From an uncultured Alphaproteobacteria bacterium (GTDB lineage: Bacteria; Pseudomonadota; Alphaproteobacteria; Rhizobiales; Amorphaceae): 64,000 bases of DNA. The stretch is from assembly GCA_963704595.1 (NCBI GenBank), contig OY969922.1, positions 3,754,660 through 3,818,659 of the forward strand, written 5' to 3'. A model generated the notes under the pieces. The model worked only from the letters and a program-made list of their open reading frames with translations, was not told the DNA's origin and did no database searches. Both the position numbers and the translations under genes were made by a program. This document shows, one piece after another, positions 71 to 60,405 of the stretch (within the stretch, counting starts at the first letter, position 1; every line of letters begins with the position of its first letter).

Positions 71-769
71 ATGACCGAGCCCCTGTTCCGCGACGACCCC
101 TATCTCACCACCGCCACCGCGACCGTCGTCAGCGCAGGCGACGGCACGCTGGTCCTCGATCGCTCGCTGTTCTACGCCGCGGGCGGCGGCCAGCCGGGCG
201 ACACCGGCCGGCTCGAGACCGAAGACGGCGCGATGCTGACGGTGAGCGACGCGCGCTACACCGAGGACCGCAGCGCCATCGCGCTCACCGTCGACGGCAC
301 CCTCGCCCCCGGCACGGCCGTCACCCAGCACCTCGACTGGGAGCGCCGCTACGGCATCATGCGGATGCACACCGCGCTGCACCTCCTCTCCGTCGCGCTC
401 CCCTACCCCGTCACGGGCGGCCAGATCGGCCCCGCCGAAAGCCGGCTCGATTTCGACATTCCGGACGAGACGCTCGACAAGGACAGCGTCGCCGCCGCCG
501 TTCAGGCGCTGATCGACGGCGACCACGGCGTCAGCACCGAATGGATTACCGACGCCGAGCTCGATGCGCAGCCCGACCTCGTCAAGACGATGTCGGTCAA
601 GCCGCCGCGCGGGTCGGGCAAGGTGCGTCTGGTGCGCATCGGCGAGATCGACCTTCAGCCCTGCGGCGGCACCCATGTCGCCGCCACCTCCGAGATCGGC
701 AGGATCAACGTGACCAAGATCGAGAAAAAGGGCCGGCAGAACCGCCGCGTCCGGATCGCCCTCGCATGA
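71..769 (+). CDS. alaX: Alanyl-tRNA editing protein AlaX-like (Thr/Ala-tRNA synthetase second additional domain)
   Basis: 232-aa ORF with the HxxxH (MHTALHLL) and CGGTH zinc-binding motifs typical of AlaRS editing-domain homologues. Confidence 0.8.
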   Translation: MTEPLFRDDPYLTTATATVVSAGDGTLVLDRSLFYAAGGGQPGDTGRLETEDGAMLTVSDARYTEDRSAIALTVDGTLAPGTAVTQHLDWERRYGIMRMHTALHLLSVALPYPVTGGQIGPAESRLDFDIPDETLDKDSVAAAVQALIDGDHGVSTEWITDAELDAQPDLVKTMSVKPPRGSGKVRLVRIGEIDLQPCGGTHVAATSEIGRINVTKIEKKGRQNRRVRIALA

Positions 770-1620
770 CGCTCGTGGACCCCGCCTGGCTCGGCGAACG
801 GCTCGGCCGCGTCGTGGTGCTCGATGCCTCGTGGCACATGCCCGACACCGGCCGCGACCCCGACGCCGAGTTCCTCGAAGCCCACATCCCGGGCGCCCGC
901 CGGTTCGACATCGACACCATCGCCGACACCGACAGCGGCCTGCCGCATACGCTCCCCTCGCCCGAGCGCTTCGCGGAAATGGTCGGCGCGCTCGGCATCG
1001 ACAACACGACCGAGGTCGTCGTCTACGAGGCCGGCCCCGTATTCTCCGCCCCCCGCGCCTGGTGGATGTTCCGCGTGATGGGACACGACGCGAAGATCCT
1101 CGACGGCGGCTTCGCCCGCTGGCGCGCCGAAGGCTTCCCGGTCGAGTCCGGCGCGGCGGCGCCGGCCACTCCCGCCCGGTTCACCGCCCGTTTCGACCCC
1201 AGCCTCTACGCCGACGCCGACACCGTCGCGAGGACGCTGGAAAAGGGCGGCAACGTGCTCGACGCGCGCGGCGCCCCCCGCTTCACCGGCTCCGTGCCCG
1301 AGCCGCGCGCGGGCCTGCGCGCCGGCCACATGCCCGGCGCCCGCAACCTCCCCTACGCCTCGCTCGTCGCCGAAGACGGAACGCTGAAAAAGGGCGACGC
1401 GCTGAAGTCCGCCATCGCAGCCTCCGGCATGAACCCCGCGCGGCCGGTCGTGACGAGCTGCGGCTCGGGCGTCACCGCCGCGATCATCGCGCTCGCGCTC
1501 GACGAGATCGGCGTGCCGGCCCGCGTCTACGACGGCTCGTGGACCGAATGGGGTGGCGACCCGTCCCGCCCCGTCGCCACCGGCCCTGCCGACAACGAGA
1601 CCTCTGCAAGCCAAAGTTAA
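766..1620 (+). CDS. sseA: 3-mercaptopyruvate sulfurtransferase (tandem rhodanese domains)
   Basis: Internal ATG of ORF 55..1620; two rhodanese domains; active-site SCGSGVTA; overlaps alaX stop by 4 nt. Confidence 0.85.
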   Translation: MTLVDPAWLGERLGRVVVLDASWHMPDTGRDPDAEFLEAHIPGARRFDIDTIADTDSGLPHTLPSPERFAEMVGALGIDNTTEVVVYEAGPVFSAPRAWWMFRVMGHDAKILDGGFARWRAEGFPVESGAAAPATPARFTARFDPSLYADADTVARTLEKGGNVLDARGAPRFTGSVPEPRAGLRAGHMPGARNLPYASLVAEDGTLKKGDALKSAIAASGMNPARPVVTSCGSGVTAAIIALALDEIGVPARVYDGSWTEWGGDPSRPVATGPADNETSASQS

Positions 1621-1664
1621 CCATCTTCGGTCATCATCCGGGCGGTCCTGATGGAGTTCGGGTG

Positions 1665-2271
1665 ATGAACAATCCTTCGCTTTGTTTCGCGGTGATCGAC
1701 GCCGAGCCGCCGCGCGCCGTCGCCGCCTGGGGCACCGTTTCGGAGCGCGAGACCTGGGAGCGGCACTACCTCGTCGGCGGCGACCACAGCCTGTGCCTGT
1801 CGCAGGCCCGCCGCGTCTTCCTCACCGCTCACGGCAGCCACGACGGGTTCCGCACCCAAACCATCATGCTCGACGCCGCCTTCCCGCTCGACTGGATGGC
1901 GCTCAACGTGATCGAACGGACACTGCCCCGTCGCCTGCGCGGCCTCGAGATCGACGGCACCGACGCGCAGTCCTTCGTCGATGCGCTCGCCGTCCCCGAC
2001 CTCGTGCAGGCGAGCGTCCACCGCGTCGCGCGCACCGCCGTCGTCGGCGCCACCACGGTCGAGACCAGCACACTCACCGTGCCGCAATGGAATGCGACCG
2101 CGGTCGCCACCACCTTCGAAAGCCGCAATCCCCATGCGCTTGCGCGCTGTGGTCGCCAGCGCGGGCCTCGGCGCCCGCCAGCACCAGGATCTGCGCGACT
2201 GGCTGCAGGCGATCGCCGCGGCGCAGACCCCCGCCCCGGTGCCGCGCCAGCGGTTCGCCATCGCGAGCTGA
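1665..2271 (+). CDS. Hypothetical protein, apparently frame-shifted (N-terminal part in the frame of ORF 831..2288, C-terminal part in ORF 1981..2271)
   Basis: ATG at 1665 follows the sseA stop. Both frames read like real protein in their own segment; the last ~40 codons of the first frame look like GC noise. No family recognised. Confidence 0.4.
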
Positions 2272-12151: not shown

Positions 12152-12226
12152 TGGAGCGGGCGATGGGGATCGAACCCACGACATCAAGCTTGGGAAGCTT
12201 GCGTTCTACCGCTGAACTACACCCGC
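12152..12226 (-). tRNA. tRNA-Gly (anticodon CCC), CCA encoded
   Basis: Reverse complement GCGGGTGTAGTTCAGCGGTAGAACG...CUUCCCAAG...GGTTCGATCCCCATCGCCCGCTCCA folds as a cloverleaf: 7-bp acceptor stem with one G-U pair, anticodon loop UUCCCAA, T-loop GGTTCGATCC. Confidence 0.9.
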
Positions 12227-12373
12227 ATGACGCGCACATCAGTCCGAACGGTGGGCGATGTCAAGCCGGGTTCAGGCGGTTCCGGCTAACCGTCGGAGCG
12301 CTTGACCGTCATGCCGCGCCGCAGCATGAGGAGCCGGCCCTATCACCCCCATGCCAACCGGAGTTGCCCCGTG

Positions 12374-13189
12374 CTCGAGCGTATCCGCAAACTGGTGACG
12401 TCCCGCGCCTGGGAAGGGATGATCATCACCATCATCCTCATCAACGCCGCGATCCTCGGGCTGATGACCTCGGACAGTGCGATGGCCGCCGCGGGGCCGG
12501 TTCTGGTCGCGCTCGACCAGATCATCATTGCCATCTTCATCATCGAGATCGTCCTGCGGATCGCGGTGTTTCGCGTCCGCTTCTTCACCGACCCATGGAG
12601 CTTGTTCGACCTCCTGGTCGTGCTGATCGCGGTCGCGCCGGCGACGCGCGAGTTCTCCGTGCTGCGCTCGCTGCGGATCCTTCGGGTGCTGCGGCTGATC
12701 TCGGTCGTTCCGTCGCTCAAGCGGGTGGTCGGCGGGCTGATCGCGGCGCTCCCCGGCATGGCCTCGATCATGTTCCTGATGGCCCTGATCTTCTACGTCT
12801 TTGCAGTGATGGCGACGTCGCTCTACGGCGACAGCTTCCCGGACTGGTTCGGCACGGTGGGCGAGTCCTTCTATTCGCTGTTCCAGATCATGACGCTGGA
12901 ATCGTGGTCGATGGGGATCGTGCGCCCGGTGATGGAGGCGCACCCCTATGCGTGGGTCTTCTTCGTTCCGTTCATCATGGTGACCTCGTTCGCTGTCCTG
13001 AACCTTTTCATCGGTATCATCGTCTCCGGGATGCAGCAGGACGTGGAGGCGGAGGCTGCCGCCAGCCGCGACGCGATGATGGAGGAGCAGTCCTCCATGC
13101 ACGACGACATCAAGGCCCTGCGACGCGACGTCGGGGCCTTGCGCGAGGCTCTCGCGCGGCAGGGAACGACCGGCCCCGGCGCGGGCTGA
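12374..13189 (+). CDS. Voltage-gated sodium channel, single-domain bacterial type (BacNav / NaChBac / NavAb family)
   Basis: GTG start 7 nt after GGAG. S4 reads LRSLRILRVLRLISVVPSLKRV (Arg every third residue). Selectivity filter FQIMTLESWSMGIVRPV and S6 are near-identical to NavAb. C-terminal coiled coil DDIKALRRDVGALREALARQG. Confidence 0.9.
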   Translation, partial: LERIRKLVTSRAWEGMIITIILINAAILGLMTSDSAMAAAGPVLVALDQIIIAIFIIEIVLRIAVFRVRFFTDPWSLFDLLVVLIAVAPATREFSVLRSLRILRVLRLISVVPSLKRVVGGLIAALPGMASIMFLMALIFYVFAVMATSLYGDSFPDWFGTVGESFYSLFQIMTLESWSMGIVRPVMEAHPYAWVFFVPFIMVTSFAVLNLFIGIIVSGMQQDVEAEAAASRDAMMEEQSSMHDDIKALRRDVGALREALARQGTTGPGAG

Positions 13190-13324
13190 GGGGCGCGGCG
13201 CCGGCACCGGCACCCTGTCGGCGAAAGCCCCAGGCGACCATCGCATGAGATGAAGCGGACTGCCTCGGCGCGCGGAAAGCCCTTCGCGCGCCACGAGGTC
13301 CAATTCGTAGATGGAGGTTCGCCA

Positions 13325-13930
13325 ATGCGTGCCCGTGCATTCGCTGCAGCGCTCTGCGGTGCGGCAATCGCCCTCCAGGCGCAAGCGTCTGAGGTTCCGC
13401 CCAACCCGAAGCAGCTGATCAACGCGGAGGTCATTGCCGAGGTTCAGGAGATGCTTGCGCGCGAGGTGGTCTCCTATGCACTCAGGAACTACAACCGCTC
13501 GCGCGCCGGGCTGACGCAGGACGACATCCTCGCGCTCGACGCCAGGTGGAAGGACGAGCGCGAACGCGAACGCAAGCCGCTCATCGTGGGGACGCTGTCC
13601 AACCCCCTCTCCTCCTACCTGACGCGGATACAGGCGCGTTCGGCCGGCCTCTACGCGGAGATCTTCGTGACCGACGAGAACGGCCTCAACGCCGGGCAGA
13701 GCAGCGTCACCAGCGACATGTGGCAGGGCGACGAGGCGAAGTTCCAGGAAACCTTCGACAAGGGCTCCGGCGCCGTCTTCATCGACGAGGCCGAGTGGAA
13801 CGACGAGAGCAAGACCTGGCGCGCCCAGCTCAACCTGACGATCGACGATCCGGCGAGCGGGGAACCGATCGGCGCTGCCACCTTCGAGATCAATCTGACC
13901 GAACTCCAGAGGCGGGCCGCCCAGTCATGA
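13325..13930 (+). CDS. Periplasmic single Cache/PDC-like domain protein (stand-alone, signal peptide)
   Basis: GGAGG ribosome-binding site; signal peptide MRARAFAAALCGAAIALQAQA; alpha/beta sensor-like domain; stop overlaps the chemoreceptor start (ATGA). Confidence 0.6.
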   Translation: MRARAFAAALCGAAIALQAQASEVPPNPKQLINAEVIAEVQEMLAREVVSYALRNYNRSRAGLTQDDILALDARWKDERERERKPLIVGTLSNPLSSYLTRIQARSAGLYAEIFVTDENGLNAGQSSVTSDMWQGDEAKFQETFDKGSGAVFIDEAEWNDESKTWRAQLNLTIDDPASGEPIGAATFEINLTELQRRAAQS

Positions 13931-15619
13931 AAAATCTCTCGATCGCCAACAAGGGCACGCTCGCCTGCGGCGCCATCGCGCTGATCTCGATCGCCGCATT
14001 CGGCATCGTGATCTGGTCGACGATGATGCAGTCGCGCACCACCGAGCAGGTGCTCCAGACCTACCGGCTCGCCGTTGCGACGGTGGAATATCGCGACGCC
14101 ATGGAGAAAGGGCACGCCTACCTCCTGCAGAAGCTCGTCCTCGGCGAAGATGTCGAGGAAGAGGAGGTGCGCGCGGCGTTCGACGATTCGCGCAGGCAGC
14201 TGGAATCCATCCGCGACTATGTGGACGGCCTCGATGGCGACGACGCGTTCATCGCCCGTCTCGACACGATCGCGGCCCTGCGGGATGAATGGTTCCGCGA
14301 CATCGCTCTCCTCCAGATCCGCGACATGGGCGACCCCTTCCGCGTCGATCTCGCCAGGCTTCGCGAGAACGACGTGCGTGGCCGCGAGATCTGGGTGATC
14401 CTCGACGAGGAGATGAAAGCGCTGATCGCCGAGTTGCGGAATTCTCCGGCAGGTGTATACGAAGCATCTCGAGCAGGAGCAGACCATACTCCTCACCAGC
14501 GGCATCGTGGGCGGCGTCATCGTCACCCTCCTGTCCATGTTCGTTACGATATTCGTGCGCCGCCAGATCGCAGCTCCGCTGCGCGATCACACCGGCGTCG
14601 CGCTGGCGCTGCGCTCCCACGACTGGTCGGTCGCGATCCCGCACCTCAAGCGGCAGGACGAGATCGGCGAACTCGGCCGCGCCCTCCAGACCCTGCGCGA
14701 CGAGGGCAAGATCGCGGAGGAAAACGACGCCAAGTACCGCGTCGAATTGGAGGCTCAGATCAAGCAGGCCGCCGCGATGAAGCGTGCCTCGGACGAGTTC
14801 AAGACGACGTCGGCCGCCGTGCTCGACGAACTGGAATCGGCCGGTCTCGCCCTTGCGGAGGCTGCGCACTCGCTCGGCCTGCGCGCCGGCGAGGGCCACG
14901 CGCTCACCAGCAGCGTCGCGGAGGCTGCATCGTCTTCCGGCTCCAACATGCAGAGCGTCGCCGCCGCGATCGAGGAGATGTCGATCTCGGTCGACGAGAT
15001 CAGCCGTCAGGTCCAGGCCGCGACGCAGCTGACGCAGCAGACCACGCAGGCCTCGCAGGCGGCGATCGAGCAGGTCTCGGGCCTGCTCGAAAAGTCCAAG
15101 AAGATCAACGATGTCATCCAGATCATCGACAACATCGCAGAGCAGATCAACCTTCTCGCCCTCAACGCGACCATCGAATCGGCGCGTGCCGGCGAGGCCG
15201 GCAAGGGATTTGCGGTGGTGGCCCAGCAGGTGAAGGAGCTCGCGGACCAGACCGGCAGCGCGACGGAGGAAATCTCCAAGGTCATCAACGACGTGCGCAA
15301 GGAGATCTCGGACGTTGTGCTCGCCATCGAGGGCATCGGCACCTCGATCAACGCGGTGAACGACAACTCGTCCACCGTCGCCGCTGCGGTCGAGCAGCAG
15401 AGCGCCGCGATCAACGAGATCTCTTCCAACGTCGGCGCGGTATCGACCCAGACCAACACGGTCGCCAGCAACGTCAAGGGCGTCGCCAAGCAGATCGGCG
15501 AGACGCACAGCCTCGCCGAGAACGTCCGCGGCCTCTCCTCCCGCGTGAAGGACAACGGCGCGAAGATGCAGAAGGAGATCGCGTCCTTCTTCGAAGCGAT
15601 CCGCAACCGCGCCGCCTGA
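13927..15619 (+). CDS. Methyl-accepting chemotaxis protein (4HB periplasmic domain, HAMP, MCP signalling domain), 1-nt frame shift near 14450
   Basis: N-terminal part (TM1 plus helical periplasmic domain) lies in the frame of ORF 13546..15687. TM2, HAMP and the signalling domain ([24 protein letters not shown]) lie in ORF 14453..15619. Confidence 0.85.
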
Positions 15620-37168: not shown

Positions 37169-37319
37169 GCCACGCCTGCCACCTCCCCGCACGCACCGCC
37201 CTGCACTGCCTGCGGCACAGTGCGCCGCCTTGTCACGCCGGCGTGACTTGCGGCGCGGCATGGTTGGCACAACGCTAGCCTTCGAACTCCCGTTCAACCC
37301 GACGAGGAAGGACCGTTCG

Positions 37320-38136
37320 ATGCATGCGACCCTCAAGGCATTGGCTTTCGCGGGGCTTGCGCTCGCGCTCTTCGCCCCTCCCGCCGCCGCACAGGTCTCC
37401 AACTGTCAGGCGATTGCCGAGCGGCTGCCCGGCGCCAAGCTGTGGCGCGCCGCGACGGGGGGCGCCGACGCCTACTCGGTCGACATCACCTACGTCGGGC
37501 ACTCCACCTTCCGCATCGTGGCGCCGGACGGCACCACCATCGCGACCGACTATTCGGGCACCCACGGCGGCGACCGCCTCCCCGACGTCGTCACCATGAA
37601 CCACGCCCACTCCAGCCACTGGACGCCGGTGCCGGACCCCGGCATCCCCCACGCGCTGAAGGGCTGGAACCCCGAAGGGGGCCGCGCCAACCACTTCCTC
37701 AACGTCGGCGAGGTGCTTGATCCGCAGCGTCCCCAGCGACATCCGCACCTGGGGCGGCCAGGTGGAGGCAAACGGCAACTCCATCTTCGTGTTCGAGATC
37801 GCGGGCCTGTGCATCGGCCACCTCGGCCACCTCCACCAGGAACTCAATGATTCCCAGATCGCCGAAATCGGCCGGCTCGACATCGTGTTCGTGCCGATCG
37901 ATGGCGGGCGGACCATGCGCCATGGCGAGATGATGAACGTCATCAGCCGCCTGCGCGCCTCGCTGGCGATCCCGATGCACTGGTTCAGCAACTACAACCT
38001 GAACGAATTCGCTGCCCGGACGCGGGACGACGGGTTCGCGGTCTCTATGAACCCCTCCCCCACCGTCACGGTGTCGCTGAACACCCTGCCCGACACGCCG
38101 ACGCTCCTGGTGATGCCGCGCGAGGTGCCGTTCTAG
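37320..38136 (+). CDS. MBL-fold metallo-hydrolase, secreted, 1-nt frame shift near 37715
   Basis: Signal peptide MHATLKALAFAGLALALFAPPAAAQ; N-terminal part in ORF 37110..37850; C-terminal part (HLGHLHQE ... ) in ORF 37717..38136. Confidence 0.7.
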
Positions 38137-38750
38137 GCGCCGTCGCCGCCGCCGCGGGGCCGGCTCATCTGGAACACCGTCGTCGCGGCGGTGTAATCGC
38201 GGTAGCCGCACCGGGCGATGGGCTGGAGGCGGGTGAGGTCCACCATGCCGTCCACCAGCACGCTCTCGTCGATGTGGATCATCACCACCTCGCCGATGAG
38301 CATCGTGTAGCGCCCGCGCACCCCCGAAGCGCTCTTCAGCGGCACGGTCTCGACGTAGACGCACTCCATCGAAACCGGCGTGGCGGCGACGCGCGGCGGC
38401 TTCACGAGCACCGATGGCGCCGTCTCCAGCCCGGCGAACTCGAACTCGGACTTGCCGTGCTCCAGCGGCGCGGACGACTGGTTCATCGCATCGCGCAGGT
38501 CGAACGTCGCGAGGTTGCAGACGAACTCGCCCGTCGCCTCGATGTTGGACTGGCTGTCCTTCACCCCGAACGAGGAGAACATCACGAGATGCGGGTGGTC
38601 GCACACAGCGTTGAAGAAGCTATAGGGCGCAAGGTTGGGCCGCCCCTCGGCGTCGAGCGAGGAGATCCAGCCGATCGGCCGCGGGGCGACCAGCGCCTTG
38701 AACGGGTCGTGCGGCAGGCCGTGGTCGTTCACGCGCGGGTCGTAATGCAT
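38133..38750 (-). CDS. Flavin reductase family protein (NADH:FMN oxidoreductase RutF-like)
   Basis: 205 aa; flavin-reductase-like fold (GWISSLDAEGRPNLAPYSFF). Confidence 0.8.
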   Translation of the reverse strand: MHYDPRVNDHGLPHDPFKALVAPRPIGWISSLDAEGRPNLAPYSFFNAVCDHPHLVMFSSFGVKDSQSNIEATGEFVCNLATFDLRDAMNQSSAPLEHGKSEFEFAGLETAPSVLVKPPRVAATPVSMECVYVETVPLKSASGVRGRYTMLIGEVVMIHIDESVLVDGMVDLTRLQPIARCGYRDYTAATTVFQMSRPRGGGDGA

Positions 38751-47669: not shown

Positions 47670-48912
47670 CTAGTCTCTCCGCAGGACGGCGACGGCCTCC
47701 ACATGAGCGGTCGCCACAAACTGATCGACGGGCGTGACGGTCTCGATCCGGTAGCCCGCGGCGGTGAGGATCGCGCAATCGCGGGCCAAGGTCGACGGCT
47801 CGCACGACACCGCGACGATGCGCGCAACCTCCGACGCCCGCCAGCGCCTCGGCGAGCGCCTTGGCGCCGGCACGCGGCGGGTCGAACACCACCGCATCGA
47901 AGACGTTGAGCTCGGCGGCATTGAGCGGATGGCGCATCAGGTCGCGCCGTGCGGCCTCGACGGGCTTGCGGCCACTCGTCCGGCGCACGGCCGATTCCAG
48001 CGCCGCGATGGCGGGCGCGTCGCCGTCGATCGCCCGCACGGCGGCCCGGCGCGACAGCGGCAGCGTGAACGTGCCGAGGCCGCAGAACGCGTCGAACACC
48101 CGGCCCGCGTCGCCGACGCCGGCGAGCACCGCCTCGGTCAGCGCCGCCTCCCCCTCGCGCGTCGCCTGCAGGAACGCGCCGGGCGGCAGGGGCACGAACA
48201 CACCGTCGAACTCCACCTGCGGCGTCTCGCGGGCGAACAGGATCTCGTCACCCTCCGCAATGCGCAGGATCGCCGGGTCGTCCGCACTGATGCGCAGGGA
48301 TTCCTTGGCGCGCGGGCGCTTGCCCCGCCGGCCGGGCTTCTGCGGCTTCTGCGCTTTGGGCGAAGAGAGCGCGACGTCGACGCCGTTGGCGCAGAGCGTC
48401 GCGACCAGCCGGGCCTCGCCGCGCTGTCCTGCCGCCGAGCGGGCGATGTCGCGCAGGACCGGGAGGAGCGCGTTGAGCCGCGGCTCCAGCGCCGGGCAAT
48501 CCGGCACGTCGATGATGTCGTGGGTGCTGCGGGCGAAGTAGCCGACCTTGCCGTCCTTCGACGTCAGCGTCAGCCGGCGGCGGCTCGCGAGCGGGGAGCG
48601 CGCCATCGGGCCGACCGGCGCCTCGAGCCCGTGCCGGGCGAGCGCGTTGACCACGCGGCCACGCTTCCACTCGGCGTAGAGCCCATCGCCGAGGTGCTGG
48701 AGCCGGCAGCCGCCGCAGATGCCGAACAGCGGACAGGGCGGCACCGCACGATCCCGCGAGAGCGGCTCGATGATCGCGCTCCCCTCCCCGCGGCGGACGC
48801 GGTCGCCGGGGATGGCGAGCGGCACCGGCCGGCCGCCGTGCTCCAGCACACCGTCGCCGGCATCGTCGAGCCCGACGACCGCCTCGTCCGGGGCGGGTCC
48901 GGATGAACTCAT
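47670..48912 (-). CDS. rlmD: 23S rRNA (uracil-5)-methyltransferase RlmD/RumA-like (TRAM + [4Fe-4S] + MTase), 1-nt frame shift near 47840
   Basis: [14 protein letters not shown] and DVPDCP cluster cysteines; [17 protein letters not shown] then a shift into [17 protein letters not shown]...[11 protein letters not shown] (ORF 47670..47921). Confidence 0.85.
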
Positions 48913-49628
48913 GTCGCCTGTGCTGCAATCAGCCATTCGCGGTTGCCGTCGCCCCCTTCGATGGGCGACGCGGTGCGCCCCATAATTGAAAATCCGGCCG
49001 CCGCGACGGCCGCCTCGACGCGGTCGACCGCGGAGAGCGCGGCGCCCTCGTCCCGCACGATGCCGCCCTTGCCGATCTCGGCCCGCCCCACCTCGAACTG
49101 CGGCTTGACCAGCGCCACCATGCGCGCCGCCGGCGCCGCTGTCGCCAGAACCGCGGGCAGCACCAGCGTCAGCGAGATGAAGCTGACGTCGAAGGTGAGG
49201 AAATCAGGCCGGTAGGCGAGATCTGCGGCCGTCAGCGTCCGCGCGTTCGTGCCGTCCATCACGGTGACCCGCGGGTCGTCCGCGATCACCGGCGCAAGCT
49301 GGCCGTGGCCGACGTCCAGTGCGATCACATGGGCAGCGCCGCGGCGCAAGAGGACTTCGGTGAAGCCGCCGGTGGAGGCCCCGGTGTCGAGCGCCCTCGC
49401 CCCCGCCGGATCGAGGCCGAAATGGTCCAGCGCATGGACGAGCTTGTGCGCGCCGCGGCCGACATAAGGGTCGGCCTCCGCGGTTAGCACGGCGCCGTGC
49501 GCAACGTTCTGGCCGGGTCGTTTCGCGGGCGCGCCGTCGACCGTGACGGCACCGCGCAGGATCGCCTCGCGCGCCTGGCTGCGGGTGCGGGCAAGGCCGC
49601 GTTCGACGAGGAGCTGGTCGAGGCGCAC
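48909..49628 (-). CDS. tlyA: TlyA family rRNA (cytidine-2'-O)-methyltransferase
   Basis: S4 domain followed by FtsJ-like MTase (LDTGASTGGFTEVLL). Confidence 0.88.
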   Translation of the reverse strand: MRLDQLLVERGLARTRSQAREAILRGAVTVDGAPAKRPGQNVAHGAVLTAEADPYVGRGAHKLVHALDHFGLDPAGARALDTGASTGGFTEVLLRRGAAHVIALDVGHGQLAPVIADDPRVTVMDGTNARTLTAADLAYRPDFLTFDVSFISLTLVLPAVLATAAPAARMVALVKPQFEVGRAEIGKGGIVRDEGAALSAVDRVEAAVAAAGFSIMGRTASPIEGGDGNREWLIAAQAT

Positions 49629-58397: not shown

Positions 58398-58446
58398 GTA
58401 TGGGCGGAAGGACCGCGCCGGACAGGCGCGACCGGCCGGGTCTTTG

Positions 58447-60316
58447 CTACGCTGCGTTCTCGGAAACGGCGCTGCGCTCGGCGCGCTTGCGGTCGTTCGG
58501 GTCGAGGTGGATCTTGCGCAGGCGGATGTTCTTCGGCGTCACTTCGACGAGCTCGAAGTCGTTGATGTAGCTCAGCGCACGCTCGAGGCTCATGCGGATC
58601 GGCGGGGTCAGCTTCACCGCGTCGTCCTTGCCGGACGCGCGCATGTTGGTGAGCTGCTTGCCCTTGATCACGTTGACCTCGAGGTCGTTGCCGCGGGTGT
58701 GCTCGCCCACGATCATCCCGCGATAGACCGTCGTGCCGGGCTCGATGAACATCGGCCCGCGGTCTTCGAGGTTGAACATCGCGAACGCAACCGCGTCGCC
58801 GTCCGCGTTGGCGATCAGGACGCCTGTGTGGCGGGTCGGGATCGCGCCCTTGTGCGGCACGTATTCGTGGAACACGCGGTTCATGATGCCGGTGCCGCGC
58901 GTGTCGGACAGGAGCTCGCCCTGGTAGCCGATGAGCCCGCGCGTCGGCGCGTGGAGAACGATGCGGGTGCGGCCCGCGCCGGACGGCTTCATCTCGACGA
59001 GATCAGCCTTGCGCTCGGACAGCTTCTGGATGACGGAGCCCGAATGCTCGTCGTCCACGTCGATGGTGACTTCCTCGATCGGCTCCAGCAGCGAGCCGTC
59101 CTCGGCCTTCTGCATCACCACCTCGGGGCGCGACACGCCGACCTCGAAACCCTCGCGGCGCATGGTCTCGATCAGGATGCCGAGCTGCAGTTCGCCGCGG
59201 CCGGCGACCACGAACGCCTCGCCGCGAGTCGGTGTCCGTGACGCGGAGCGCGACGTTGCCTTCCGCCTCACGGATGAGGCGGTTGCGGATGACGCGGCTC
59301 TGCACCTTGTCGCCCTCGGTGCCCGCCAGCGGCGAATCGTTGACGCGGAAGGTCATCGCCAGCGTCGGCGGGTCGATCGGCTGCGCCGGGATCGCCTCGG
59401 TGACGGAAGTCGCGACGATGGTGTCGGCCACGGTCGCCTTGGTGAGGCCGGTCAGCGAGACGATATCGCCCGCGCGGCCTTCCTCGACCGGAACGCGTTC
59501 GAGCCCGCGGAACGCCAGCACCTTGGACACGCGGCCCATCTCGACCACGTCGCCGTTGCGCGCCAGAGCCTTGACGCTCTGGTTCGGCTTCACGGTGCCC
59601 GACGTGATGCGGCCGGTCAGCATCCGGCCGAGGAACGGGTCGGCCGCGATGGTGGTGGTGAGCATGCGGAACTCGCCCTCTTCCACCGTCGGCTCCGGCA
59701 GGTGCTCGACGATGAGGTCGAGCAGCGGAGCGGTGCCGCGCGAGGTGTCTTCCGGCTTGTCCTTCGGGTCGAGCGCCATCCAGCCCTGCTTGGCGCTGCC
59801 GTACAGGATCGGAAAGTCGAGCTGCTCGTCGGTGGCGCCGAGGGCGTCGAACAGCTCGAACACCTCGTCGATCACTTCCTCGTGCCGCTCTTCCGGCTTG
59901 TCGATCTTGTTGATCGCGACGATCGGCCGGAGGCCCATCTTGAGCGCCTTGCCGACCACGAACTTGGTCTGCGGCATGGGGCCTTCGGCGGCATCCACCA
60001 GGACGACAGCGCCGTCGACCATGGAGAGGATGCGCTCGACCTCGCCGCCGAAGTCGGCGTGGCCGGGGGTGTCGACGATGTTGATGCGGGTCGGCGGGGT
60101 CTTGTCGCTTTCCCACTCGATGCTGGTGACCTTGGCCAGGATCGTGATGCCACGCTCCTTCTCAAGGTCGTTGGAGTCCATCGCGCGCTCAGCGACCCGC
60201 TGGTTGTCACGGAACGAACCGGACTGGCGCAGGAGAACGTCGATCAGCGAAGTCTTGCCATGGTCAACGTGCGCGATAATGGCGACGTTGCGCAGAGCGC
60301 GGCGTGCGGAATTCAT
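58447..60316 (-). CDS. typA: Translational GTPase TypA/BipA, 1-nt frame shift near 59240
   Basis: G1-G4 motifs AHVDHGKT, DTPGH, NKID; ORF 59003..60316 shifts after RVTDTDS into ORF 58447..59271 (GEAFVVAGRGELQLGILIE). Confidence 0.9.
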
Positions 60317-60405
60317 GAAGCGTGTGCCAACAATATTTTGGATAGGCCCGCGTTGCCACGGACCGGGCCGAAAAGCCAGCGTTATTTCCGCAAGGCAGCT
60401 ACGCG

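Follow-up and report, generated by a model that had tools for sequence, protein, structure and literature searches.

The question raised by this locus is whether a chemoreceptor and a small secreted protein encoded just upstream of it act together as one sensor. The locus lies in contig OY969922.1 (assembly GCA_963704595.1) of an uncultured alphaproteobacterium of the Amorphaceae. A stretch of 64,000 nucleotides of this contig (positions 3,754,660 to 3,818,659 of the forward strand), called the window below, was analyzed, and coordinates are positions within it unless another locus is named. The small gene (13325..13930, + strand) was read from the sequence as encoding a secreted, stand-alone protein of 201 aa, with a PDC/Cache fold in an AlphaFold2 model, which belongs to an uncharacterized family without a Pfam model. 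Its stop codon overlaps the start codon of a gene for a methyl-accepting chemotaxis protein (MCP). The reading that we favor, with a probability of roughly 0.55, is that the two genes specify one sensory unit, a two-piece chemoreceptor in which the secreted Cache-fold subunit would hold the ligand pocket and be read by the distal tip of the helical MCP domain. The export signal, the fold, the helical receptor domain, the strict reciprocal pairing of the genes and the family-wide conservation of a motif are directly supported by the results that follow.

The small gene encodes an exported protein with a Cache/PDC fold

The small open reading frame (ORF) begins with the ATG at 13325 and runs for 201 codons to a TGA at 13928-13930. 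A longer version starting at an upstream ATG (13250), given by a mechanical ORF list, is not supported; the ATG at 13325 is preferred because it is preceded, with a 7-nt spacer, by a Shine-Dalgarno sequence, GGAGG (13313..13317, + strand), and because all homologues start at the equivalent position. The N-terminus, MRARAFAAALCGAAIALQAQA followed by SE, has the basic n-region, hydrophobic core and AxA site of a Sec-type signal peptide. This predicted signal occupies residues 1-21 (13325..13387, + strand), with cleavage between AQA and SE, and residues 1-20 have low predicted local distance difference test (pLDDT) values in the model described below. By the same heuristic reading, the layout recurs in about 80 homologues, nearly all of which are 185-260 aa long, and the conserved signal places the protein outside the cytoplasm, as for members of the Cache/PDC superfamily. 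Inspection of the 201 residues revealed neither a lipobox nor another hydrophobic stretch; the only cysteine, C11, is inside the signal peptide, and the family alignment has no conserved cysteine. With one N-terminal signal sequence and no output domain, the protein lacks the usual Cache architecture, in which the domain is flanked by transmembrane (TM) helices and fused to an output module.

Searches of the small protein against Pfam, NCBIfam and PDB profiles gave no match (for Pfam, none at E ≤ 1). No member of the Cache clan of Pfam reached its gathering threshold, and among 36 family members only two had sub-threshold matches to dCache_1, the best with an E-value of 0.004. The AlphaFold2 model, built with a 36-sequence alignment, had a pLDDT of 91.6 and a predicted TM-score of 0.84. 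It contains five short helices (residues 28-105), a sheet of five strands whose β2-β3 loop includes a short helix, and a C-terminal helix. This arrangement, with N-terminal helices against an antiparallel sheet of five strands and a helical β2-β3 insert, is that of the PDC fold, and Foldseek aligned the model with 76 structures at E ≤ 1e-3, with KinD, Tlp3 and DctB at the top. The TM-scores were modest because the N-terminal helices fold back as a bundle instead of forming the TM1-continuous stalk of membrane-bound sensors. The small protein matched no solute-binding protein (SBP) family, and the model is a single PDC module, so it is not an SBP partner. The original prediction, made from the window alone, had proposed here a Cache-like protein with a Sec signal and no membrane anchor. 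The ORF, the signal-peptide pattern and the absence of other hydrophobic segments agree with the export and the lack of an anchor, and the structure modeling that it suggested has, with Foldseek, confirmed the Cache/PDC fold at the level of a predicted structure; membership of a named Cache family was not confirmed by sequence.

The close homologues (n = 1161) are about 200 aa long, are all annotated as hypothetical, and come from genera including Acuticoccus, Salinarimonas, Thalassospira, Dongia, Stappia/Roseibium, Hoeflea, Rhizobium/Ciceribacter, Sneathiella and Kordiimonas. In a profile search of 1.84 billion cluster representatives, 3210 clusters (counted at 50% identity) belonged to the wider family at E ≤ 1e-3. 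The family is marked by an invariant motif, GLNxGQ…TSDYWQGDEAKF, which in residue form reads GLNxGQSxxTSDxWQGDExKF. In the window protein this signature is GLNAGQSSVTSDMWQGDEAKF (residues 120-140; 13682..13744, + strand), and its invariant alignment columns span strand β2 and the β2-β3 loop. Further conserved residues are N57, D72, W75, Y98, E112, D117, F152, D154, W165, Q168, T186, E188 and N190. Even in members with no more than 36-39% identity, the signature core and N57, D72, W75, E112, D117 and T186 do not vary, and the same is true of three secreted proteins (P0272, P0308 and P0345; loci L085-L088) that lack an output domain and have the domain fused to SBP_bac_3, to helical domains of the PilJ type or to another copy of the same domain. 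All three of these fusion proteins retain TSDYWQGDE(A/T)K, and in P0272 and P0308 sub-threshold matches to dCache_1 and MCP-like_PDC_1 cover the domain. In PDC topology the β2-β3 loop is the usual lid of the pocket, from which we infer that the signature may line a ligand pocket in the modeled protein. The W-x-x-x-E-A-K-F part of the signature also resembles what we take to be a general Cache signature, a resemblance that we use only as a lead.

The chemoreceptor has a helical periplasmic domain

The ATGA that joins the two genes lies at 13927..13930 (+ strand), so that the MCP start codon is 13927-13929; TM1 and a helix-rich region follow. In the window the MCP frame is shifted by one extra base at 14440, described below, and the gene was therefore read in two parts. 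The 5' part (13927..14439, + strand; codons 1-171) contains TM1 (~13960-14022) and most of the helical periplasmic domain; it is 69-70% identical to the N-termini of intact orthologues, and the third-codon-position G+C content (GC3) keeps its phase to ~14400. The 3' part (14441..15619, + strand; codons 172-563 and the stop) contains the end of helix 4, TM2 (~14486-14557), a HAMP domain (~14552-14701) and the MCPsignal domain (~15017-15508); it was placed by 86-88% identity to orthologues, by Pfam and by GC3 phase. The repaired protein thus has the order TM1, about 155 periplasmic residues, TM2, HAMP (E = 7.7e-08) and MCPsignal (E = 4e-31), with two TM helices before the Pfam domains as expected for an MCP.

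The N-terminal fragment of the window MCP, used alone as a query, matched no homologue, and an intact Acuticoccus orthologue was used instead. Structure prediction was performed for an intact orthologue, P0121 (pLDDT 83 overall and ~90 in the periplasmic part). The modeled periplasmic region is all-helical (helices at residues 6-72, 78-99, 105-134 and 150-229, and a short one at 137-147), with four antiparallel helices in the ~150 residues between TM1 and TM2, and Foldseek aligned the model with full-length Tsr (8c5v_I) and with a sensor-TM-HAMP fragment of NarQ. Neither the window fragment nor P0121 matched the Pfam models 4HB_MCP_1, TarH or CHASE3. CHASE3 did pass its cut-off (28 bits) in the paired MCPs of two loci with Rhizobiaceae-type partners (L009, 35.3 bits; L071, 33.9 bits), and weak CHASE3 matches were present in 3 of 33 close MCP orthologues. 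These results support the assignment of the predicted periplasmic domain to the helical four-helix-bundle (4HB)/CHASE3 type and not to the Cache type, as had been proposed originally. The start of the chemoreceptor and its helical sensor, as first read, also stand; the break in its frame was not seen in that reading.

Within this otherwise variable domain two segments are conserved, FLLTG (residues ~69-74) and W..A..QI.LMR.P.TV.LARAIE (residues 122-147). The second (14290..14367, + strand) is the most conserved periplasmic segment across 76 paired MCPs and comprises the end of helix 3 (105-134 in the model) and the short distal-tip helix (137-147). Both map to the membrane-distal tip of the model, one in the turn after helix 1 and the other at the short helix that follows helix 3 and precedes helix 4. 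The distal tip is also the region in which MBP contacts Tar (PMC8050422), and we regard residues 122-147 as a candidate docking site.

The two genes are paired across the Alphaproteobacteria

A genome scan with the family alignment found 577 loci, of which 80, from different species and with 48-60% identity, were returned for the adjacency count; one was left out because its contig ends 149 nt past the small gene. In all 79 evaluable loci, from many alphaproteobacterial genera, a same-strand MCP signaling domain follows the small gene, and the downstream MCPs leave room for a periplasmic domain of ~190 aa. Three close relatives beyond these loci have the same pair. The recurrence of the pair in 79 of 79 independent loci argues that it is not due to chance. 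The relationship also holds in the reverse direction: when the search started from the MCP, two of its orthologues (P0155 and P0140) likewise proved to have a gene of the small-protein family immediately before them. All-against-all clustering of the flanking ORFs gave no third conserved gene, the next real cluster being present in at most 14 loci; ferrochelatase, 5'-nucleotidase and Band7/NfeD were rejected as genes of the module, since they reflect only clade-specific synteny. The functional link that the original prediction had drawn between the two genes is strengthened by this adjacency, by the lack of other conserved neighbors and by the reciprocal check.

The spacing of the genes varies. 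The gap is ≤30 nt in 41 loci and 31-150 nt in 27, and overlap of the ATGA or TGATG kind is found in the Acuticoccus clade and a few others (ATGA in Acuticoccus sp. MNP-M23, TGATG in the metagenome locus L003). The overlap from which translational coupling had first been proposed is therefore present in the window and is not a general feature, most loci having a gap of 10-110 nt; the overlap is clade-specific and the operon is general. The closest named relative, Acuticoccus sp. MNP-M23 (small protein 74-76% and MCP 82-87% identical), has in common with the window the order Ion_trans channel, pair, alpha/beta hydrolase, EamA, atpH and atpA. The source of the window is most likely an Acuticoccus-like alphaproteobacterium.

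Two distant family members (P0363 and P0389, 36-39% identical) are each followed directly by an MCP. The periplasmic domains of these two MCPs, which gave no periplasmic Pfam match, look alpha/beta and not helical when read from their sequences. Because distant members pair with MCPs of an apparently different periplasmic type, the secreted protein appears to be the constant element of the pair. Over 76 pairs the mean p-distance was 0.42 for the small protein, 0.75 for the receptor periplasmic domain and 0.59 for the signaling domain. Distances of the small protein track those of the periplasmic domain (r = 0.82) more closely than those of the signaling domain (r = 0.75; partial r = 0.65), a correlation that is only suggestive because the two genes are co-inherited.

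The frameshift at 14440 is probably a sequencing artifact

The window MCP does not form one uninterrupted frame. Frame 1 is coding to Arg171 (14437-14439); the true continuation, read in the +1 frame, starts at 14441 and reaches its stop codon at 15619. Alignment to intact orthologues places a single extra A at 14440 (+ strand), and GC3 phase changes frame at the same place. Within 14400-14480 the window has CGGAATTCTCC, which in a real pseudogene would be the true sequence; an intact gene would have CGGATTCTCC there. Deletion of base 14440 restores GATTC, a GANTC site, and gives a protein of exactly 563 aa, the length of the intact orthologues encoded by Acuticoccus sp. MNP-M23 (L002) and by a metagenome contig (L003). 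Both halves align to intact orthologues without gaps at 69-88% identity, and there is no other lesion.

A Logan contig (L001) from run ERR12040027 has the same junction at 14440. It differs from the window at only two positions, 14189 and 14838, each a C-to-T change at the last base of a GANTC site (GATTC to GATTT and GAATC to GAATT), although only 0.63% of window positions are in or next to such motifs. Because both differences fall at GANTC sites, this contig was dropped as independent confirmation of the frameshift.

A scan of GC3 phase revealed three more single-base frameshifts within the same 64 kb. The first such scan had missed 14440 itself while finding the other three, so four is a lower bound. 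One is in the housekeeping GTPase gene typA/bipA (~58440-60320, - strand), where an extra base at 59224 is 2 nt from GAGTC, a GANTC site; the repaired TypA matches TIGR01394 end to end (1-594 of 594 positions, 891 bits). Another, a +1 frameshift at ~47832-47835, is in a gene for an RlmD/RumA-like methyltransferase (~47670-48936, - strand), whose repaired product extends to position 445 of the 446 in the RlmD profile. A further +1 frameshift, at 37719 between HFLNVGEVL and IRSVPSDIRTWGG, is in a gene for a secreted MBL-fold hydrolase-like protein (~37200-38140, + strand); the sole family match of the repaired protein is a weak one, to a metal-dependent hydrolase (E = 7.7e-06). Because the 64 kb contain four frameshifts, of which one is in typA and several are at GANTC sites, the lesion at 14440 is probably an artifact of sequencing, a basecalling error of the kind that we take to arise at CcrM-type methylated sites. 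The two C-to-T differences from the Logan contig also point to methylation-linked errors and to indels of that kind left in the deposited assembly. The MCP is very probably intact in the organism.

Other explanations of the broken frame were considered. Programmed +1 frameshifting was rejected, since the context CGG A AUU is not slippery and the orthologues are in one frame. A genuinely split MCP with two functional ORFs was also rejected, since frame 1 continues as junk to 15687 and the orthologues are single proteins of 563 aa.

Proposed mechanism and its alternatives

In the mechanism that we propose, the 201-aa product would be exported by Sec, lose its signal peptide and become a soluble, single-module Cache/PDC domain in the periplasm, with its N-terminal helices packed into a compact bundle in place of a membrane-anchored stalk. 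The invariant polar and aromatic residues at the β2-β3 loop and the face of the sheet (GLNxGQ..TSDxWQGDExKF, E112, D117, F152, D154, W165, Q168, T186, E188 and N190) would form a pocket for a small ligand, which would be the same across the family. With its many acidic and amide side chains (Asp, Glu, Asn and Gln) and two Trp, the pocket could take a cation, an amine or a sugar/polyol, although this is a guess. The distal tip of the 4HB/CHASE3-type domain would read the loaded protein or, should the two be in permanent contact, a change in its conformation, and the signal would then pass through TM2 and HAMP to the CheA-controlling tip, as in any MCP. The tight operon, with its ATGA overlap in this clade, would lead to near-equimolar synthesis of both proteins. 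We favor a dedicated co-receptor over a shared transport binding protein because of this coupled synthesis and because no transporter is nearby. The secreted protein in which a PilJ-type helical domain and the Cache-fold domain are fused gives a hint, of the Rosetta-stone kind, that helical sensor domains and this Cache domain cooperate.

Several points weigh against the proposal. One family member, P0319 (192 aa, Stappia sp.; 4001..4579 in L089/L090), adjoins an NMT1-type ATP-binding cassette (ABC) transporter (binding protein, ATPase and permease) and not an MCP, and the loci of the fusion genes P0272 and P0308 contain no neighboring receptor gene. Because the SBP_bac_3 and PilJ fusions are such orphans, the Cache domain of this family is not exclusively an MCP partner. 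The distance correlation is what is expected of any co-inherited pair, near-equimolar coupled expression is unlike that of classical binding proteins, and the MCP frame as deposited is broken. Ligand binding, physical docking, the site of docking and the direction of signaling are what we infer.

An unlikely alternative is that the secreted protein is a ligand-independent modulator, which binds the MCP periplasmic domain constitutively and tunes, inhibits or stabilizes it, as in CpxP-CpxA, ExoR-ExoS and YfiR-YfiN; the helical domain would then sense the chemoeffector itself, or envelope or redox conditions would release the modulator. Coupled, near-equimolar expression, strict gene pairing and a receptor with a complete helical sensor domain of its own all suit such a role. 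It accounts less well for the distribution of conserved residues: conservation in the small protein is highest in the canonical PDC pocket region, which stays invariant even next to what looks like another receptor type or with no adjacent receptor, while in the receptor periplasmic domain little besides the tip is conserved. Because the pocket region is invariant whatever the partner, a small-molecule site fits better than a protein interface.

Less probable still is co-expression without contact, in which the small protein does something else in the periplasm, for instance scavenges or buffers a compound or delivers it to a transporter, that compound or one related to it is sensed directly by the MCP, and the operon serves only for co-regulation. 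P0319 beside its ABC transporter and the fusion forms without receptors are compatible with this, and stand-alone sCache_heme proteins are thought to have non-signaling roles (PMC12889525); however, it would leave unexplained the 79 of 79 pairings across changing contexts with no transporter or enzyme conserved nearby, and the persistence of pairing in distant subfamilies with different receptor types. It is also improbable that the module is dead in this genome, the frameshift being real, the MCP a recent pseudogene and the secreted protein a leftover orphan, an explanation that overlaps the other alternatives. The presence of the junction in both the window and the Logan contig, and the lack of a slippery or hungry-codon context for programmed frameshifting around CGG-A-ATT, are on its side; the at least three further frameshifts, including that in typA, the GANTC site recreated by removing the extra A, the confinement of window/L001 differences to such sites, and two otherwise undamaged gene halves are not.

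Comparison with known systems

The two-piece chemoreceptor proposed here resembles the binding-protein-dependent chemoreceptors (Tar-MBP, Trg-RBP/GGBP and Tap-DppA of E. coli, CtpL-PstS of P. aeruginosa, and TlpB-AibA/AibB of H. pylori) in that a soluble periplasmic protein would serve as partner to an MCP with a helical 4HB-type docking platform; there too, some partner genes adjoin the signaling gene (PMC8050422). It differs from them in that the partner is a single-module Cache/PDC protein co-translated with its receptor, with no transporter nearby; its interaction with the receptor is proposed, with indirect support from the strict gene pairing and the conserved distal tip of the periplasmic domain. 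The receptor-stimulating periplasmic proteins in a 2021 review were all in SBP families of Pfam, 13 in number, and mostly also serve transporters (PMC8050422). Thus the system would work like a binding-protein-dependent chemoreceptor while falling outside that group as currently defined, and it rests on an unnamed protein family. Docking of periplasmic binding proteins on 4HB and CHASE3-type domains is known for Tar-MBP, LytS-XylFII and GlnX-GlnH (PMC8050422, PMC9769921). In the GlnH-GlnX-PknG system of Mycobacterium and Corynebacterium, a binding protein is likewise encoded beside a membrane protein whose periplasmic 4HB/CHASE3-type domain relays inward (PMC8050422, PMC9769921), but GlnH is an SBP_bac_3 protein and the output is a Ser/Thr kinase and not an MCP.

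Stand-alone Cache domains are highly unusual, more than 90% of Cache domains being fused, according to a 2026 preprint (PMC12889525). The sCache_heme proteins (DUF3365/Tll0287) described there are also secreted single-module Cache proteins, often without an output module (PMC12889525). They have a CXXCH c-type heme site between β3 and β4 and match PF11845, both of which are absent from the small protein, and no systematic pairing with MCPs was reported for them. A known intracellular double Cache module with an amine motif is similarly split from its output in a conserved two-gene operon, its partner being a transcription factor. In LuxP-LuxQ a periplasmic accessory protein also acts with a receptor periplasmic domain, with the roles of the folds reversed (the receptor is PDC-like and the partner has the SBP fold). 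The energy-taxis receptor CetA/CetB of Campylobacter is likewise split, into a PAS-type sensor and an MCP-like transducer encoded by adjacent genes; CetB, however, is cytoplasmic and membrane-associated, and its sensor is PAS and not a secreted Cache domain. Searches of a library of open-access papers turned up no secreted Cache protein described as the partner of an MCP.

Every known case of indirect chemoreception involves transport-type SBPs, and Cache domains, which make up the largest class of extracellular sensors in bacteria, are nearly always an integral part of the receptor. If our reading is correct, Cache sensing can be supplied in trans, a route of indirect chemoreception that does not use SBPs is added, and a sizeable unannotated protein family is defined; it could also explain CHASE3/4HB receptors without a known ligand, by giving them a testable partner. 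As a tentative extension, to which we give somewhat less than even odds, the unnamed family of more than 3,000 clusters, absent from Pfam, may consist of heme-less secreted Cache domains that act as detachable sensor subunits, each dedicated to a chemoreceptor. The receptor periplasmic domain, helical here and apparently of other types elsewhere, would then serve mainly for docking and transmission, and one ligand would be bound by all through the TSDYWQGDEAKF pocket. With two genes and soluble domains, the system is small and amenable to standard binding and chemotaxis assays.

Neighboring genes

Scans of the window for promoters and terminators gave nothing above background. The neighbors gave no consistent clue to the ligand, being Ion_trans in the Acuticoccus clade and L091, Porin_O_P in L094 and the NMT1 ABC genes beside P0319. 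Directly upstream of the pair is a gene for a NaChBac-like Ion_trans channel (12302..13189, + strand), which is kept in L002, L003 and L093. An Ion_trans gene also follows closely after the pair in L091, a distant locus, and is absent from the other 80 loci; this association may be a coincidence or a clade-specific link. In L094, a single metagenomic case, a gene of the phosphate-selective porin family Porin_O_P (554..1906) lies 20 nt upstream of the small gene. The only Rfam match was a tRNA, a tRNA-Gly(CCC) (12152..12226, - strand) on which ARAGORN and Rfam agree and which lies between a histone-deacetylase-like gene and the Ion_trans gene.

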